A stretch of DNA of 64,000 bases from a virus (lineage: Duplodnaviria; Caudoviricetes): the IMG/VR virus record IMGVR_UViG_3300028591_000175, positions 1-64,000 of that record. The stretch is one strand, 5' to 3'. The position numbers were made by a program, and so were the translations under genes. Numbering within the stretch: position 1 is the first letter of the stretch; every line of letters begins with the position of its first letter. A model generated the notes under the pieces. It ran no database searches, was not told the DNA's origin, and worked only from the letters and a program-made list of their open reading frames with translations. Shown piece by piece: positions 21,366-33,152 of the stretch.

Positions 21366-21508
21366 ATCCTGTATCCTCCTTTCTATTAAATTAAAAATAG
21401 ACCTCTTTGAAGGTCTACAGGATTATTTATATCAGTAAAAAATTACTAACTATTCTGTTATTGCGTTTAATCCTGTAAACGACTTACTTGTTCTCTATTT
21501 ATGTTTGT

Positions 21509-21537
21509 ATTATATATTATAAAAAATAAAAAGTCAA
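21509..21537 (-). promoter_or_regulatory. Sigma-A-type promoter for Sak4-SSB
   Basis: TTGACT-N17-TATAAT on minus strand; -35 lies in the 12-bp inverted repeat AAAAAGTCAATA/TATTGACTTTTT. Confidence 0.7.
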
Positions 21538-21560
21538 TACCTTTATTGACTTTTTCTAAA

Positions 21561-21908
21561 TTATTTTATTTCACTTAATCTACGTCTAACCTCATTAAAT
21601 AAAAATGCTAGAAAGTTGCTACTTACACCTAGTTTTTCTCTATAATATCCTGGGTCAGTATCTGGAATATTTATATTAAATCCATAAGCACCAAACCCTA
21701 CGACACCAACTAATAAATCTCGGCTAGTAATACCTCTTTGATGAGTACCAAAATCATTAGGATTGTATGCAAATAATACGTCATATTGTGAATATTCTTC
21801 TTCTATTTGAATATTCATAAATAGACTACCTCCATTAAGTAATGCCGCGACAATAATACTAGCGTAGCCGTCAATTTTATTTTTTATTTCTTCGTCTATT
21901 TCCACCAT
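21561..21908 (-). CDS. Hypothetical protein
   Basis: 115-aa ORF with GGAGG RBS. Confidence 0.7.
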   Translation of the reverse strand: MVEIDEEIKNKIDGYASIIVAALLNGGSLFMNIQIEEEYSQYDVLFAYNPNDFGTHQRGITSRDLLVGVVGFGAYGFNINIPDTDPGYYREKLGVSSNFLAFLFNEVRRRLSEIK

Positions 21909-22197
21909 TGTTATCCTCCTTTTTTAATTTGGTTACTCTACCACCAACGATATAATTTCCTGTTTCGGTACGGGGTACATAAATACTCCCTGACTTTTTT
22001 AGGTCACGTTTCTTTCTTAAAAATCCTTGCAATTTCATATACATTTTATAGGCTTGCGCTGGTGTTGCGTCAAAAAATTCAATTTTATGAAGCATATCAA
22101 CAATTCGTCTATCATATTGTGAAATTAGTTCGTTGTTATTCTTTAGTTTTTCTTTTTCTGAATATACAACACCAGGAGTTTTATTTATCCTGTTCAC
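21877..22197 (-). CDS. Hypothetical protein
   Basis: 106-aa ORF, GTG start with GGAGG RBS. Confidence 0.65.
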   Translation of the reverse strand: MNRINKTPGVVYSEKEKLKNNNELISQYDRRIVDMLHKIEFFDATPAQAYKMYMKLQGFLRKKRDLKKSGSIYVPRTETGNYIVGGRVTKLKKEDNNGGNRRRNKK

Positions 22198-22408
22198 TTG
22201 TATTATCCTCCTCTAATTTTAATGGCTCGTCTGGATACAAATTATTATATCTATTAACTTGCTCCTTAATTGCTTCGCCCATTTGTTCCCAAAATTTTTT
22301 ATCTTCTCTGTTTCTTCTGATTTGACATATTAACATATGTACTAATACTACAATTTGTAATACTAATAAAGCAATTAACAAAAATTTTATAGTTAAATCA
22401 ACCATCAT
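22181..22408 (-). CDS. Small single-pass membrane protein
   Basis: N-terminal hydrophobic helix; RBS GAGG. Confidence 0.65.
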   Translation of the reverse strand: MMVDLTIKFLLIALLVLQIVVLVHMLICQIRRNREDKKFWEQMGEAIKEQVNRYNNLYPDEPLKLEEDNTSEQDK

Positions 22409-22427
22409 TTTACCTCTTTTCTATATA

Positions 22428-22782
22428 AGGAGTATGGCGGTTTTATCGTTTATTCCGCCTGCAACCCCGCCACCTGAAGCGACGTAGAGGTCACGCTGTG
22501 CGCCTCCGTATGGGACCGTTATCACGACGCCAGCCAACAAAGATAGTGCCTGTGTGGAAGAACACTTATCTGCCCATCTTCAATATGGAGCTACCATATT
22601 CCTCGTGCGTCACAGGGGCTATTCCCTAGAACAGAAATGTGACGTCTCGCTACTAGCCACGCTAAACTCCCTTTTGTTAACGTCACTAGGGACCAGCTGA
22701 CGTGCATAGATAAATATGCAATCTAAGCAATACACTTGCCCCTCTACTTTTACTTAGGCGGAATAGTGCGAATCTTCTCCAA
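22428..22782 (-). ncRNA. Large (about 350 nt) pseudoknot-rich non-coding RNA
   Basis: GC-rich, ORF-free; 10-bp closing helix 22451-22460/22756-22765, many internal hairpins, long-range 7-bp pairing 22484-22490/22741-22747; co-oriented with tRNAs. Confidence 0.7.
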
Positions 22783-22804
22783 GGGTTTATGGTTTTCCTT
22801 CCAA

Positions 22805-22891
22805 TGGCGCCGTGGTGAGGTGTCGAACCCCCACGCTTTCACGTGTACGTGCTTTCAAGGCACGGTGTGACTAGCCGGTCACAACCACGGC
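22805..22891 (-). tRNA. tRNA-Ser(TGA) with non-canonical 8/4 fold
   Basis: GCCGTGGT/ACCACGGC acceptor, CGTGC-CTTGAAA-GCACG anticodon arm, long variable arm, GGGG-TTCGACA-CCTC T arm, ends GCCA. Confidence 0.8.
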
Positions 22892-22900
22892 ATAAATGAG

Positions 22901-22994
22901 GCGAGTTGAGGGTCTATACCCCGAGATTACCTACCCTCTTTCATTCATAATATTATATCCTAGAATTCAATTATGAATATATCGGGATACTCGC
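22901..22994 (-). ncRNA. Structured element starting immediately after the tRNA-Lys CCA
   Basis: GCGAGT/ACTCGC, TATCCCGA/TCGGGGTA, ATTCATAAT/ATTATGAAT and crossing GAGGGT/ACCCTC helices. Confidence 0.5.
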
Positions 22995-23070
22995 TGGTGG
23001 GTCGTGTTGGACTCGAACCAACTACCCTTACATTAAAAGTGTAATGCTCTACCTGATGAGCTAACGACCC
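22995..23070 (-). tRNA. tRNA-Lys(TTT)
   Basis: Cloverleaf, TTACA-CTTTTAA-TGTAA, GTTCGAGTC T arm, ACCA end. Confidence 0.92.
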
Positions 23071-23145
23071 ATATACAATAGAGAACAGTCAAACTCTATC
23101 ACCCATACCAGTATCTATGTGGATACATAAATCGACTGTTTTTAA

Positions 23146-23232
23146 TGGTGGGCGGAGAGGGTATCGAACCCACTCGGGCCGTTAGACACGAGATTTACAG
23201 TCTCGCCCCGCTCCTTACGGGTCTACCCGCCC
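23146..23232 (-). tRNA. tRNA-Tyr(GTA)
   Basis: CGAGA-CTGTAAA-TCTCG, variable arm, GTTCGATAC, ACCA end. Confidence 0.9.
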
Positions 23233-23237
23233 ATATA

Positions 23238-23456
23238 TTAACAAAGACCAAACTCTTTGCGTTTTTTATTTATAACTTCAACTACGTCTCTAACAGTTTC
23301 TTCTTCATATTGTTCTCTCCAGATTTTTTCACGTTTCCAGAAATGCTCTGCGTTTATAGTTTCACAAACACCGATACAATATATAGCTGTTTTCATACTC
23401 CAGCAACCGTCACAAGCTCGTTGATTACACCAATCTACAAATTCTTTATATTTCAT
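23238..23456 (-). CDS. Hypothetical protein
   Basis: 72-aa ORF coupled to upstream stop. Confidence 0.7.
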   Translation of the reverse strand: MKYKEFVDWCNQRACDGCWSMKTAIYCIGVCETINAEHFWKREKIWREQYEEETVRDVVEVINKKRKEFGLC

Positions 23457-23752
23457 TTTTTTATTTCCTCTAACTTTTTTATTAACTCGTCTATATCGTC
23501 GTCAGTGATACAAATTTCACATAGTCTATATTCTTTACCTCTAATTGCAAACCATATCATTTTAAGTCTCTTTTTGAATTTATCCCACATTTTGTCTTGC
23601 TCACTATAAAATTTTGAAGTTGTAATTGTAATATAATAGTCATTAGGTAGTCCTACCTCTTTATATTTTGTTACATAAATACCTTCATTACAACCACAGT
23701 CGCAATTAACTATGACTAATTTTTCTTTCTTTGTTTCTCCTGATACTACCAT
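23453..23752 (-). CDS. Hypothetical protein
   Basis: 99-aa ORF with GGAGG RBS, CDCGC motif. Confidence 0.7.
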   Translation of the reverse strand: MVVSGETKKEKLVIVNCDCGCNEGIYVTKYKEVGLPNDYYITITTSKFYSEQDKMWDKFKKRLKMIWFAIRGKEYRLCEICITDDDIDELIKKLEEIKK

Positions 23753-23772
23753 AATAACCTCCTAAAAATTAT

Positions 23773-23862
23773 TGGCGGTGACGGTAGGATTTGAACCTAC
23801 GGTACGTTTCCGTACGCCGCGTTAGCAGTGCGGTGCATTAAACCAAGCTCTGCCACGTCACC
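23773..23862 (-). tRNA. tRNA-Ser(GCT)
   Basis: CCGCA-CTGCTAA-CGCGG, long variable arm, GGTTCAAATCC, GCCA end. Confidence 0.9.
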
Positions 23863-23867
23863 ATATT

Positions 23868-23942
23868 TGGTAGCGCTATCCAGAGTCGAACTGGACACCC
23901 CAGGATGAAAACCTGGTGACTTAACCGACTGTCCCTAGCGCC
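23868..23942 (-). tRNA. tRNA-Glu(TTC)
   Basis: CCAGG-TTTTCAT-CCTGG, GTTCGACTC, ACCA end. Confidence 0.9.
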
Positions 23943-23964
23943 ATATGAAGGGGCTAACCGACCC

Positions 23965-24298
23965 CTATTTTCTTTTATGGAATTTAGCCCAATCATTTAT
24001 TGCGTCTTCTAAACTCCAATCGTGTAACGTTCTCCAACCGTCTTACTCCATTTGCTAAATCTTTTTGGTCTTGTTCCCAACGGTCAATCGCGTCTTGTTT
24101 TGTTTCTAAAAATTTGAATTCCCATAAATCCCAACTGTCTAATCCTAAAGATTTATAGTGTCTACCGTTACCAACTTCAATATTAGGGTTTTTTAGTTTC
24201 CTTCTGATTTTACGGTTAGCATATTGCTTTCCTTTCTTCATTGACCTACCCCATAAAGCCATTCTTGAAATTGGGAAGTGTTTATAACTTCTACTCAT
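23965..24298 (-). CDS. MSRSYK-type hypothetical protein with +1 frameshift at CGG (24040-24038)
   Basis: Zero frame stops at 23993; +1 frame after AGA-C gives GWRTLHDWSLEDAINDWAKFHKRK*, ending at a hairpin. Confidence 0.6.
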
Positions 24299-25180: not shown

Positions 25181-25645
25181 TTATTTGTATGTTACATTAT
25201 TTAATACATAAGACATTGTTGAATTTGAAACATTAAAACGTTTCGCAAGTGAAGTCAAACCATATTCTTTATCCCTAGGTTTATACATATCTCTACACCA
25301 TTGTACCTGCTCTTTTGTGAGTTTAGCGTTATAAGATTGTTCACCACGACCTTGATGTGACCAACGCTCTGCTACCCATTCAAGATTACTTGCTTCATTA
25401 TTCAAAGTATTACCGTCAATATGTCTAACCCAAGTGTAACCCATAGGATTTGGTACAAAAGCCATAGCAACTAAACGAGCTACTATATAATATTTTGCTT
25501 TTCCTCTAGCTCCTAAAGATAAATTCACCATTAGACAATTACTTTTATCAAGTTTTTGTTTTAATATTTTTCCAGTTTGTTTATTTCTAACGTCTCCATA
25601 TTTTGAAACTTCATAATTTGAACAAACGCTACATTCTTTCCACAT
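25181..25645 (-). CDS. NUMOD4-HNH homing endonuclease inserted among tRNAs
   Basis: WK...YEVSKYGDVRN, ARLVAMAFVPN, HIDGNTLNNEASNLEW, C-terminal HTH. Confidence 0.85.
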   Translation of the reverse strand: MWKECSVCSNYEVSKYGDVRNKQTGKILKQKLDKSNCLMVNLSLGARGKAKYYIVARLVAMAFVPNPMGYTWVRHIDGNTLNNEASNLEWVAERWSHQGRGEQSYNAKLTKEQVQWCRDMYKPRDKEYGLTSLAKRFNVSNSTMSYVLNNVTYK

Positions 25646-29679: not shown

Positions 29680-30792
29680 CTATTCTCCACCTTTCAATAA
29701 ATATTTATTAGACACAACTTTGAATGAATAGGTCATATCTTCTGTTCTAAATACGACACCTTCTGCGATTTGATTTGGTGAAGCGTCTTCAAAATATTTT
29801 CTGTATTTTATATCGTCAACATATTTCAATAATTTTTCCACAGTATTATCCACTGTTTCCTCAGGGTCAAATTTGAATTTATCTTCTGCGTCAATTAGAG
29901 GTACGTGCTTTAGACCGAATTCTTCACATAATTTTAACATATATAATAAGTCACATTTTACATAGCTTCCATTTTTACCAGTTTTACTTACAAAAGCATT
30001 GAATATAAACCATTCTTTTTCTTTAAGTCCTAATTTATTTCCTTGAATACCTGGTCCACATAATTCTCCTTGGAATGCTACATATATACCATTTATAGCT
30101 TTATAATTTTCAAATTTTTCTTTAGCTTCGTTTTCAAAATATTTATTAACTGTAGTAGTATACATATTTTCGTCTTTATAAAATTGATTTCTACCACCTA
30201 TTAAAAATGCGTCGTCAAATAATCCAACTGTGCAAGAAGTACCGTCAAGTTTTATTGAGCTATACCAATCATCTTGTTCACTATTCATATATGTTGGTAA
30301 AACGTCTGCTGCACAAACTTGAATTCTCTCCTCATCAGTTTTTGGTATATACCATTCGTGATGAATTATATCGCCTAATGCTCCGTTTGAAACCGGTGGT
30401 TCATATTTTTCTATTTTTAATAATTCAGTTAAATCTTCACCTTCTGGATATTCAGTTCTAAAATCTATTTCACCATTTATCTGTACCATTAAATCTTTTA
30501 TTTGCTCATAAGGTATTACTAATCCTTGAGAAATTTGATTTCTAAATTTATGTGTAGAAATCTTATACTTATTTAATTTTTGTGACCAAGAAGAACCCTT
30601 TAAGAATTCAAACGCTGGAATATCGGGAAGTAAGCTATCAATTTCAAAATAAATAACTTTGTCTCCTACTCGATATTCTCCTTTTCTGGCCACACAATCC
30701 CAGTTTAAGATTTGAACAATCTCTATTCTATCTGCACCCTCTATCGGCTTTATCGCCTTGACAGTCTGCACACTTGCTAACTTTCTGCTCAT
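29680..30792 (-). CDS. ATP-dependent RNA ligase (DRB0094/Rnl2-like with N-terminal OB-like domain)
   Basis: MSRKLASVQ..IKPIEGADRIE, YFEIDS, KLDGTS (motif I), QGELCGPGIQGN, EGVVFR, SFKVVSNKYL. Confidence 0.9.
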   Translation of the reverse strand: MSRKLASVQTVKAIKPIEGADRIEIVQILNWDCVARKGEYRVGDKVIYFEIDSLLPDIPAFEFLKGSSWSQKLNKYKISTHKFRNQISQGLVIPYEQIKDLMVQINGEIDFRTEYPEGEDLTELLKIEKYEPPVSNGALGDIIHHEWYIPKTDEERIQVCAADVLPTYMNSEQDDWYSSIKLDGTSCTVGLFDDAFLIGGRNQFYKDENMYTTTVNKYFENEAKEKFENYKAINGIYVAFQGELCGPGIQGNKLGLKEKEWFIFNAFVSKTGKNGSYVKCDLLYMLKLCEEFGLKHVPLIDAEDKFKFDPEETVDNTVEKLLKYVDDIKYRKYFEDASPNQIAEGVVFRTEDMTYSFKVVSNKYLLKGGE

Positions 30793-32406: not shown

Positions 32407-32634
32407 TTATTCCTCCCCGTTATCTAAAATATCTGTCAACGCGTTAATTTCTTCTGGAATTCTTGCAATAGCCACTAATGCGTCACCTGTTTCAGCACTA
32501 CCTAATGTGTCACGAAGATTTGCAGTTAATGTTTTCAATGTATCGTGTATTTCAGCAAGTGTTGAATTTAACGTCTTCATTTCTAGTAACTTTTTTTCTT
32601 CAATATGTAACAATTTGCTTTCAAACGGTGTCAC
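32407..32634 (-). CDS. Hypothetical protein
   Basis: 75-aa ORF, GTG start with GGAGG RBS. Confidence 0.6.
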   Translation of the reverse strand: MTPFESKLLHIEEKKLLEMKTLNSTLAEIHDTLKTLTANLRDTLGSAETGDALVAIARIPEEINALTDILDNGEE

Positions 32635-33152
32635 TTTAGATACCCTCCTTTCAATAAATAATCTAGTGTCACGGGTTTATAATTATATAACATACACCCT
32701 ACGTTATATCTATTTATATCAGGTCGGTTATCTGGTTTGTGTGTATGACCGTGTAAGTGAATACTTCCGTGTTCTTTACAATTCCAGCTTTCTATTGGAT
32801 AATGTGATAAAATTATAAATTTACCGTTTATCTTTAGCTCTTTATAGTGAACCATCTCCTCGAAGTATCTAGGATTAAATGCTTGCTTGTTTATATATGT
32901 ATCGTGATTTCCAATAATTAAATGTTTTTTTCCGTTTAATCGACTTAATACATCTGTTATTAAAAATGGTGTCATATATGAATTTTGAAACGCAAAATCT
33001 CCTAAAATATATACTTCGTCGTTTGGTTTAACTACCTCATTCCAATTTTTAATAAGACCTATAGTCATATCTTCTACTGTCTTCCAAGGTCTATCTTCAT
33101 ATTCAATAATATTTTTATGACCTAAATGTAGGTCGCTTGTAAAATAAATCAT
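32631..33152 (-). CDS. Calcineurin-like metallophosphoesterase
   Basis: FTSDLHLGH, ILGDF, GNHD, SHYP, HGHTH. Confidence 0.9.
   Translation of the reverse strand: MIYFTSDLHLGHKNIIEYEDRPWKTVEDMTIGLIKNWNEVVKPNDEVYILGDFAFQNSYMTPFLITDVLSRLNGKKHLIIGNHDTYINKQAFNPRYFEEMVHYKELKINGKFIILSHYPIESWNCKEHGSIHLHGHTHKPDNRPDINRYNVGCMLYNYKPVTLDYLLKGGYLK

Follow-up and report, generated by a model that had tools for sequence, protein, structure and literature searches.

In phage T4, two small stable RNAs of ~120–140 nt (species 1 and 2; rnaC/rnaD) lie at the distal end of the tRNA cluster and derive from the same precursor as the tRNAs; we know of no report that either is pseudoknotted. ROOL RNAs contain several pseudoknots, occur in phages and prophages, in many cases next to tRNA islands, were first found in cow rumen data and are abundant (PMC5737381; 10.1101/2024.12.08.627333). 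Theta ribozymes, which are hepatitis delta virus (HDV)-like, start a few bases past the 3′ end of phage tRNAs in mammalian-gut Caudoviricetes and have been proposed to cut 3′ trailers; they are described as minimal nested double pseudoknots, with a P1 helix starting at the cleavage site (Kienbeck et al. 2024, PMC10879173). Here we describe a non-coding RNA (ncRNA) gene directly behind the last tRNA gene of IMGVR_UViG_3300028591_000175, an uncultured virus of 77,231 bp (99% complete, ~30% G+C), of which the first 64 kb (64,000 nucleotides, hereafter the window) was analysed.

The RNA is present in the window as a single copy, encoded on the minus strand at ~22804–22436 (369 nt), and consists of an optional 5′ domain of 102 nt followed by a conserved core of 267 nt. 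Eight tRNA genes, called by ARAGORN, occupy the minus strand from 25746 to 22805; the RNA lies between a complete tRNA with its CCA and the start of an open reading frame (ORF). A sequence-only reading of this DNA had proposed a pseudoknotted ncRNA at the 3′ end of the tRNA island, at 22428–22782; the kind of element and its location, directly behind tRNA-Ser (tga), were borne out, whilst both boundaries moved, conservation beginning at 22804 (directly past the tRNA CCA) and the last conserved helix stopping at 22436. The high G+C content that it had remarked on is also real (0.46–0.51 within the stretch versus 0.24–0.35 in the flanks). We consider it probable that the element is a gene for a stable, trans-acting, multi-pseudoknotted ncRNA of an uncatalogued family, terminal in a phage tRNA operon; the RNA is well supported as a gene and constitutes a new family.

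Covariation of the minus-strand fold

The core is composed of helices H1–H7 and three pseudoknots (PK1–PK3), and its fold is under selection on the minus strand. Counted on 29 distinct core sequences (2138 cells, each being one sequence at one pair), the 76-pair model with its three pseudoknots is paired in 90.6% of cells, compared with 37.5–51.7% when the partners are slid by 1–3 columns; 42 of the 76 pairs have changed on both sides (309 cells). None of 500 shuffles matched the observed pairing or covariation score, but because shuffles ignore relatedness, more weight rests on the slid controls and on the variety of independent pair types. RNAalifold alone, applied to 18 full-length sequences, predicted 56 pairs, 28 of which carry compensatory changes. 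PK2 was found by a scan of column covariation with a stacked-helix filter.

The strand is assigned from the G-U pairs, which are frequent and invariant and which would be A-C on the opposite strand; two invariant G-U pairs in H6/H6b likewise indicate the minus strand. Folding relative to shuffled sequences agrees with the minus-strand fold proposed earlier (z = −2.0, versus −0.42 for the plus strand). The order and spacing of the modules are equal in all 29 variants. The elements of the RNA, and the tRNA gene that it follows, are:

22805–22891, minus strand: tRNA-Ser (tga), last of the eight tRNAs, adjoining the RNA upstream in the same direction of transcription
22703–22804, minus strand: optional 5′ domain, 102 nt, starting at the first base past the tRNA-Ser CCA
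22698–22702 / 22681–22685, minus strand: helix H1; column pair 3/20 is AU in 17 and UA in 12 variants
22688–22692 / 22668–22672, minus strand: pseudoknot PK1, loop UCCCU with AGGGA; no change in its four central pairs among the 29 variants
22604–22661, minus strand: three-way domain of H2, H2b and H2c with PK2, from the covariation model
22658–22661 / 22604–22607, minus strand: H2, 100% paired
22639–22644 / 22608–22613, minus strand: H2b, 90.5% paired, four compensated pairs
22624–22626 / 22614–22616, minus strand: H2c, 100% paired, two compensated pairs; loop AAUARCC invariant
22654–22657 / 22618–22621, minus strand: pseudoknot PK2, GCUA with UAGC in the H2c loop, 100% paired
22594–22600 / 22582–22588, minus strand: hairpin H3, 7 bp, 100% paired, six of seven pairs compensated
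22573–22577 / 22510–22514, minus strand: pseudoknot PK3, AUGGG (between H3 and H4) with CCCAU (H5 loop)
within 22541–22571, minus strand: variable hairpin H4
22531–22534 / 22495–22498 and 22526–22529 / 22501–22504, minus strand: the two halves of H5, 97.4% and 100% paired
22488–22494 / 22461–22467, minus strand: H6, GUGACCU with GGGUUGC, 100% paired
22480–22484 / 22468–22472, minus strand: H6b, inside H6, of variable length, four compensated pairs
22455–22459 / 22436–22440, minus strand: terminal hairpin H7, GGCGG with CCGCC

PK2 and PK3 are newly found here and are the best-supported long-range pairings. In PK2, column pair 59/101 is UA in 18 variants, CG in ten and UG in one. PK3 encloses the variable hairpin H4, and its partner strand is the pyrimidine-rich loop of H5, a hairpin with three compensated pairs in each half. 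Because the register of PK3 shifts between lineages, it was tested at homologous segments; every one of the 29 variants forms at least four contiguous Watson–Crick pairs there, and the duplex takes 13 distinct forms (AUGGG/CCCAU, ACGGG/CCCGU, AAGGG/CCCUU, UGGAG/CUCCA, AGAG/CUCU, AAGAGG/CCUCUU and others), a value that shuffled loops equalled in 1162 of 5800 trials. Counted by column, four of its five pairs are compensated.

These pairings bear on whether the stretch encodes one molecule or is a chain of separate pieces, namely a tRNA 3′-trailer element, a small structured RNA or two, and H7 as a hairpin for processing or termination. Such a chain would accommodate a 5′ domain that is optional or replaced in six of 18 homologues, a locus (L022, discussed below) that keeps PK1 and the 3′ half without H2–H4, the U-run that stands behind H7 in some relatives, and a transcript contig that passes into adapter at 22753, a hint of a discrete end within the 5′ domain. 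However, PK3 joins the H3/H4 junction to the H5 loop and covaries in 13 versions, so the middle of the molecule folds jointly with its 3′ part; module order and spacing are constant; a single contig (22453–22789) covers most of the 5′ domain together with the core up to H7; and the 5′ domain cannot adopt an HDV-like fold, nor does any ribozyme family match. We regard a chain of separate pieces as unlikely.

The 5′ domain begins right behind the tRNA regardless of the identity of that tRNA (Ser, Tyr, Lys or Cys). Its first hairpin, UGG[AAGGAAAA]CCA (22790–22803), has 3 bp, the first of them at base 2, and shows covariation by eye (UGG/CCA, UAG/CUA, GAC/GUC). An HDV-like or theta ribozyme was considered for this domain and rejected, as the covarying hairpin (bases 2–4 with 13–15) leaves no P1 strand before it. 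Among the 18 full-length homologues, the domain is cut to the first hairpin in two (L009, L019), absent from one (L011) and of unlike sequence in three (L014, L012, L018).

The individual helices listed in the sequence-only reading were counted on the same 18 homologues, with mixed outcome. The hairpins CGTCA/TGACG (94% paired, two compensated pairs), CGTCACA/TGTGACG (93.5%, four compensated pairs) and AATATGG/CCATATT (100%, six of seven pairs compensated) are upheld. AGTGTT/GGCACT is 75.8% paired with four compensated pairs, in a part where the alignment is shaky. The crossing pairing TCCCT/AGGGA, our PK1, is plausible (98.8% paired), although it is invariant and covariation is therefore uninformative; its fifth pair, U-A, is kept in 21 of 29 variants, and the linker between its strands is A-rich (UUAACAAAA). 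TAAGTAA/TTGCTTA and TGCATA/TATGCA are present in six of 18 but never vary, and belong to a lineage-specific insert in the 5′ domain. For GTAGAGG/CCTCTAC, the inner GUAGA/UYUAC holds whilst one column pair is broken in nine of 15 sequences; the CCTCTAC 3′ strand is conserved also in homologues without the 5′ domain. Two proposals fell. The closing helix TATTCCGCCT/AGGCGGAATA is 70–86% paired and shows compensation in a single cell; the AGGCGG strand pairs instead with the downstream CCGCC in H7, where changes to GCCGG, GACGG and GACGA are compensated, as they are not in the 5′ CCGCC. The supposed crossing pairing GTGGCGG/CCGCCAT is 70.6% paired, and its letters belong to H6b and H7.

Substitutions also document the 3′ part of the core. 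Column pair 312/389 of H6 is GC in 22 variants, CG in six and UA in one; H6b carries inserts of up to ~60 nt in relatives; and H7 passes from GGCGG/CCGCC to GCCGG/CCGGC, GACGG/CCGUC and GACGAG/CUCGUC. The 14-nt loop of H7 is conserved and A-rich, with the letters A, UAAA and C invariant. Across the 29 variants 66 columns are invariant, many of them in loops and junctions, and these letters point to a specific partner or to self-contacts. The H3 loop, UAGCU, is near-invariant (the exceptions being UAACU in L025 and UAGCC in L046), and the self-complementary AGCU, present in 27 of 29, is a possible kissing contact.

A further pairing involves the sequence just behind H7, where ACUCC (22429–22433) could pair with GGAGU (22666–22670), overlapping the 3′ strand of PK1. 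This pairing was seen by eye, is partly predicted by RNAalifold and shows one-sided changes only; it would compete with PK1 in an unprocessed transcript.

Distribution, genomic place and transcription

Homologues were collected through a neighbouring Sak4-like protein, which led to 24 IMG/VR loci, 20 of which contain the RNA (68–98% identity, blastn). Exact patterns drawn from conserved columns found the same contigs in IMG/VR plus one more, all from the same phage group; two pattern matches, at L042 and L043, lie inside coding sequence and were rejected as chance. A pattern scan of a genome collection gave one true match, in a 75-kb contig binned into an ‘uncultured Clostridia’ metagenome-assembled genome, and one chance match, and a pattern search gave 26 metagenome loci. 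With nhmmer, 62 of 71 loci were confirmed (including 21 of the 26 metagenome loci), and the 60 full-length matches (≥100 bits) collapse to 30 distinct core sequences.

Covariance half-models of the core (R1, covering H1–H3, and R2, covering H5–H7) define how far the family extends. R1 had no match in 150 further genomes sampled from the order of the Clostridia genome, and blastn in its distant mode gave no match to the region among 50,697 deposited phage records. With a profile of the Sak4-like protein, 15 phage loci of more distant kinship were reached (29–58% identity), in which neither half-model had a credible match (best R1 E-values 0.041 and 0.95); in the nine of these loci that were scanned for tRNAs, none lies within 6 kb. 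Five of these distant phages, 91–100% complete, were searched whole and carry 1–8 tRNAs each, with no match to either half-model, and in the four that were inspected an ORF stands almost directly behind the tRNA array, without a G+C-rich spacer. The RNA is therefore an acquisition of one clade of ~73–79-kb ruminant-gut phages and no general part of tRNA arrays; because the distant relatives have arrays without it, it is not required for a working array.

One locus, L022, carries a mini form. Here R1 matches only over PK1 (546–586) and R2 over 578–679, and inspection by eye shows that H1/PK1, H6, H7 and a short H5 whose loop reads UCCCAU are kept whilst H2–H4 are missing, so that the middle domain is dispensable in at least one lineage. 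In L022 an AUGGGG able to pair with the H5 loop is now found inside H6, and a tRNA-like sequence with an insertion, uncalled by ARAGORN, stands upstream.

The position of the RNA relative to tRNA genes is constant. Same-strand tRNAs occur within 2.5 kb upstream in 29 of the 30 variants (the thirtieth has only 58 nt of upstream sequence), no variant has a tRNA downstream of the RNA (0 of 30), the RNA follows the last tRNA in all 29 with upstream sequence, and in 22 of these no more than 110 nt separate the last tRNA from the start of the core. Which tRNA comes last differs between phages (Ser, Tyr, Lys or Cys), and tRNA order and content vary among otherwise close phages (L002–L027; Sak4-like protein 71–100% identical), and a homing-type endonuclease of the HNH/NUMOD4 kind is encoded inside the tRNA island at 25181–25645. 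Together, this suggests that the island is often reshuffled while the RNA retains its terminal place.

On the downstream side there is no such constancy. Behind the RNA stand five unrelated ORF families, with counts of 13, 7, 4, 3 and 1 among the 28 variants with a downstream ORF; they include a small membrane protein, a second membrane protein, a gene which we take, by eye from its N-terminal sequence, to encode a putative thymidylate synthase, and two others. The closeness of the next ORF, which starts at most 41 nt behind the RNA in all but one of 28 variants (117 nt in the remaining one), would fit a leader acting in cis on the gene 0–41 nt behind the RNA, whether as a riboswitch or in processing or translation control, and the alternative GGAGU/ACUCC pairing could act as its switch. 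Yet five unrelated gene families argue against a gene-specific leader; moreover, RNA depth falls from 10–25 on the RNA to 0–3 on the ORF, the complexity of the structure is far above that of known leaders, and its place is fixed relative to the tRNAs and not to the ORF. We judge a leader very unlikely.

The absence of a protein product, claimed from the outset, was sustained: ORFs in the stretch measure at most 48 aa in this phage, and none is conserved in strand, frame and place among the 29 variants, the longest (21–78 aa) changing in all three respects. A small protein gene, or an element acting at the DNA level (a replication origin, or a recombination or packaging site), might be suggested by the location just upstream of genes for the Sak4-like annealing protein and an SSB-like protein; against this, only one strand retains the G-U pairs, hairpins and pseudoknots alike show compensatory changes, the stretch is strongly enriched in RNA libraries and no ORF is conserved, which leaves this explanation close to refuted.

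Evidence of transcription comes from animal-gut sequencing runs in which the stretch was found; named hosts are sheep or cattle, and six of the runs are recorded as RNA. Assembled contigs of four metatranscriptome runs (X15–X18), from four ruminant-gut studies, were mapped on 21500–24000, where the main contigs are:

22475–22879: main contig of run X15, depth 24.9
22445–22867: main contig of run X16, depth 10.6
22453–22789: main contig of run X17, depth 20.1
22454–22753: main contig of run X18, depth 17.1

The contigs cover the stretch at depth 10–25 and show that it is expressed. In all four runs depth is 0 at 21500–22171 and 23180–24000, and 0–3 on the ORF just downstream, which excludes carry-over of DNA as the source of the signal; the RNA greatly exceeds the adjacent messages in abundance or in stability. 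The contigs of X15 and X16 bridge the border between tRNA-Ser and the RNA, which fits co-transcription with the tRNA. In one run, sequencing adapter follows the contig at 22753, a position within the 5′ domain, and this junction may be a discrete RNA end or a processing site. No end-to-end joints, and no sign of a circular form, were found among the contigs of the four runs.

Several neighbouring features complete the setting. Immediately upstream of the tRNA array is an adenine methylase gene, and small ORFs and the HNH endonuclease are scattered among the tRNA genes. Behind the RNA, an ORF for a 75-aa membrane protein begins at 22408 and is followed by the Sak4-like and SSB-like recombination genes. 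Other observations in the region are:

22181–22408, minus strand: the 75-aa predicted membrane protein, with a conserved EDKKFW motif, found behind the RNA in 13 of 28 variants; no family in Pfam or PHROG
22892–22994 and 23071–23145, minus strand: spacers behind tRNA-Lys and tRNA-Tyr, likewise G+C-rich, which look structured
23145–23609, plus strand: a 154-aa ORF on the strand opposite to the tRNA island, overlapping tRNA-Tyr and minus-strand ORFs, and probably spurious

No Rfam family was found in 22892–22950 at E ≤ 10, the remainder of the two spacers having been scanned only at gathering score. An element (GCGAG...CTCGY) resembling these spacers stands between tRNA-Lys and the RNA in L010.

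Possible role

The most probable course of events, in our view, is that the RNA would be transcribed along with the tRNAs from their promoter, as there is no conspicuous promoter-like site before it: a scan for sigma-70 promoters and terminators found nothing near the RNA that exceeded shuffled sequences. It may then be released by tRNA 3′-end processing and would act in trans as a folded RNA, not by base-pairing to a message. Its role could be the same as that of GOLLD and ROOL, supporting the take-over of tRNAs and translation or protecting against host attack on tRNAs; we offer this tentatively, by analogy, as a possibility with the balance of probability somewhat against it. Through the invariant self-complementary AGCU of the H3 loop, the RNA may also form a homo-oligomer.

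A different kind of function, a new class altogether, can be envisaged, in which the RNA would be a multimer joined by its palindromic loops, in the manner of the GOLLD and ROOL assemblies but with an unrelated fold, or a catalytic or scaffolding RNA working on tRNAs with the phage's own ligase and phosphoesterase against anticodon nucleases. Two genes upstream of the tRNA island are relevant to this idea:

29680–30792, minus strand: RNA ligase (Pfam RNA_ligase, with the OB-fold domain PHA02142)
32631–33152, minus strand: calcineurin-like metallophosphoesterase

These two look like a tRNA-repair pair. The RNA ligase occurs in four of five relatives with the RNA and in none of five more distant relatives without it, an association which is confounded by kinship and is no more than a lead towards a role in a conflict over tRNA cleavage and repair. 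Overall we hold such a new functional class to be improbable.

Several points count against the reading of the element as a trans-acting RNA at the end of a tRNA operon. The family is narrow, being confined to one clade with 30 distinct cores, and the five distant relatives have tRNA arrays without it; since the sequences are related, the shuffle controls overstate the significance of the fold. The RNA data are assembled contigs, which give neither strand nor true ends, and the contig ends at 22445–22454 are not read as RNA 3′ ends because strains diverge there and the ends may be assembly breaks. The mini form in L022 makes the molecule modular, and processing into separate pieces is conceivable. 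That the AGCU loop mediates oligomerisation is guessed from its invariant palindrome, and the function as a whole is a proposal from analogy.

Bacteria and phages have few large, intricate RNAs with a high number of invariant letters, and the known examples comprise ribozymes, the cores of ribonucleoproteins and the still-unexplained cages of GOLLD and ROOL. If the trans-acting reading is true, the RNA adds a third, unrelated and much smaller fold at the end of a phage tRNA operon; a third fold in the same genomic place would argue that the place itself selects for an RNA-based function. With a 267-nt core, three pseudoknots, a mini form (L022) and high abundance in gut RNA, it would also be a tractable model for tRNA-island RNAs and a target for structure determination.

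Comparison with known RNAs

The sequence-only reading left two options, a compact relative of GOLLD and ROOL or a new class; comparison with known families supports the second and gives no support to the first, as there is no model match and both size and architecture differ. A cmscan of the window against all 4227 Rfam 15 families at gathering score returned six tRNA matches only. In a permissive scan of 22300–22950 at E ≤ 10, only U6, cow-rumen-1 and twister-P5 appeared, with sub-threshold E-values of 0.47–8.4 and on the plus strand or outside the conserved RNA; GOLLD, ROOL, RNase P RNA, transfer-messenger RNA (tmRNA) and group I introns had no model match to the region at this threshold. 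In 13 divergent variant loci, all 43 matches at E ≤ 0.5 were tRNAs or lay outside the RNA. No Rfam family covers the RNA, and the novelty claimed for it stands.

The candidates named at the outset were each rejected. ROOL (RF03087; threshold 99.1 bits) is unmatched in the window, in 22300–22950 and in the whole 77-kb record, the scan of the region being the stronger test, as the control genomes of the record search were also blank. GOLLD (RF01998) has no model match, and its length is more than 800 nt compared with 369 nt here. For RNase P RNA, tmRNA and group I introns there is no Rfam match at E ≤ 10, no tmRNA by ARAGORN and no interrupted gene. A riboswitch or cis leader, considered in addition, has no consistent downstream family, the 28 variants having five unrelated ones.

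It might still be asked whether the models have missed a very divergent ROOL, GOLLD, RNase P RNA, tmRNA or group I intron. The genomic place and habitat are those described for ROOL and GOLLD (PMC5737381; 10.1101/2024.12.08.627333), and a conserved 3′ part with a variable 5′ part recalls GOLLD. Nonetheless, 4227 models run with permissive filters at E ≤ 10 over a 651-nt region gave no match, nor did Rfam over the RNA in the 13 variant loci; ROOL is unmatched at E ≤ 10 in the whole record, which is little proof on its own as 14 control genomes are unmatched too. ARAGORN finds no tmRNA, the RNA interrupts no gene and is thus not an intron, and its 369 nt are well below the ~580 nt of ROOL and ~800 nt of GOLLD. 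A missed member of one of these classes is accordingly highly improbable.

Literature searches turned up no account of this RNA, although it may be among the 8,495 unnamed candidates from IMG/VR listed by Fremin et al. 2023 (PMC10690425). With the theta ribozymes it shares only its place behind a tRNA, and its conserved core is four times larger. The likeness to the T4 species 1 and 2 RNAs lies in the same kind of distal place, the T4 RNAs being much smaller.

Closest in setting are GOLLD and ROOL (PMC5737381; 10.1101/2024.12.08.627333). Their shared trait of being phage-encoded next to tRNA genes is found here also. As in GOLLD, the present RNA lies beside phage tRNAs and combines an optional 5′ domain with a conserved core, whereas GOLLD exceeds 800 nt and has another secondary structure. 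As with ROOL, its gene adjoins a tRNA island, here in phages of the ruminant gut, and RNA libraries contain it in abundance. It differs from ROOL in size (369 nt with a 267-nt core, compared with an average of 581 nt), in having far fewer multistem junctions (one clear three-way junction, H2/H2b, and a series of hairpins), in the arrangement of its three pseudoknots and in its many invariant letters, of which ROOL has few; and whilst ROOL is spread over three phyla, the present RNA belongs to a single phage clade.

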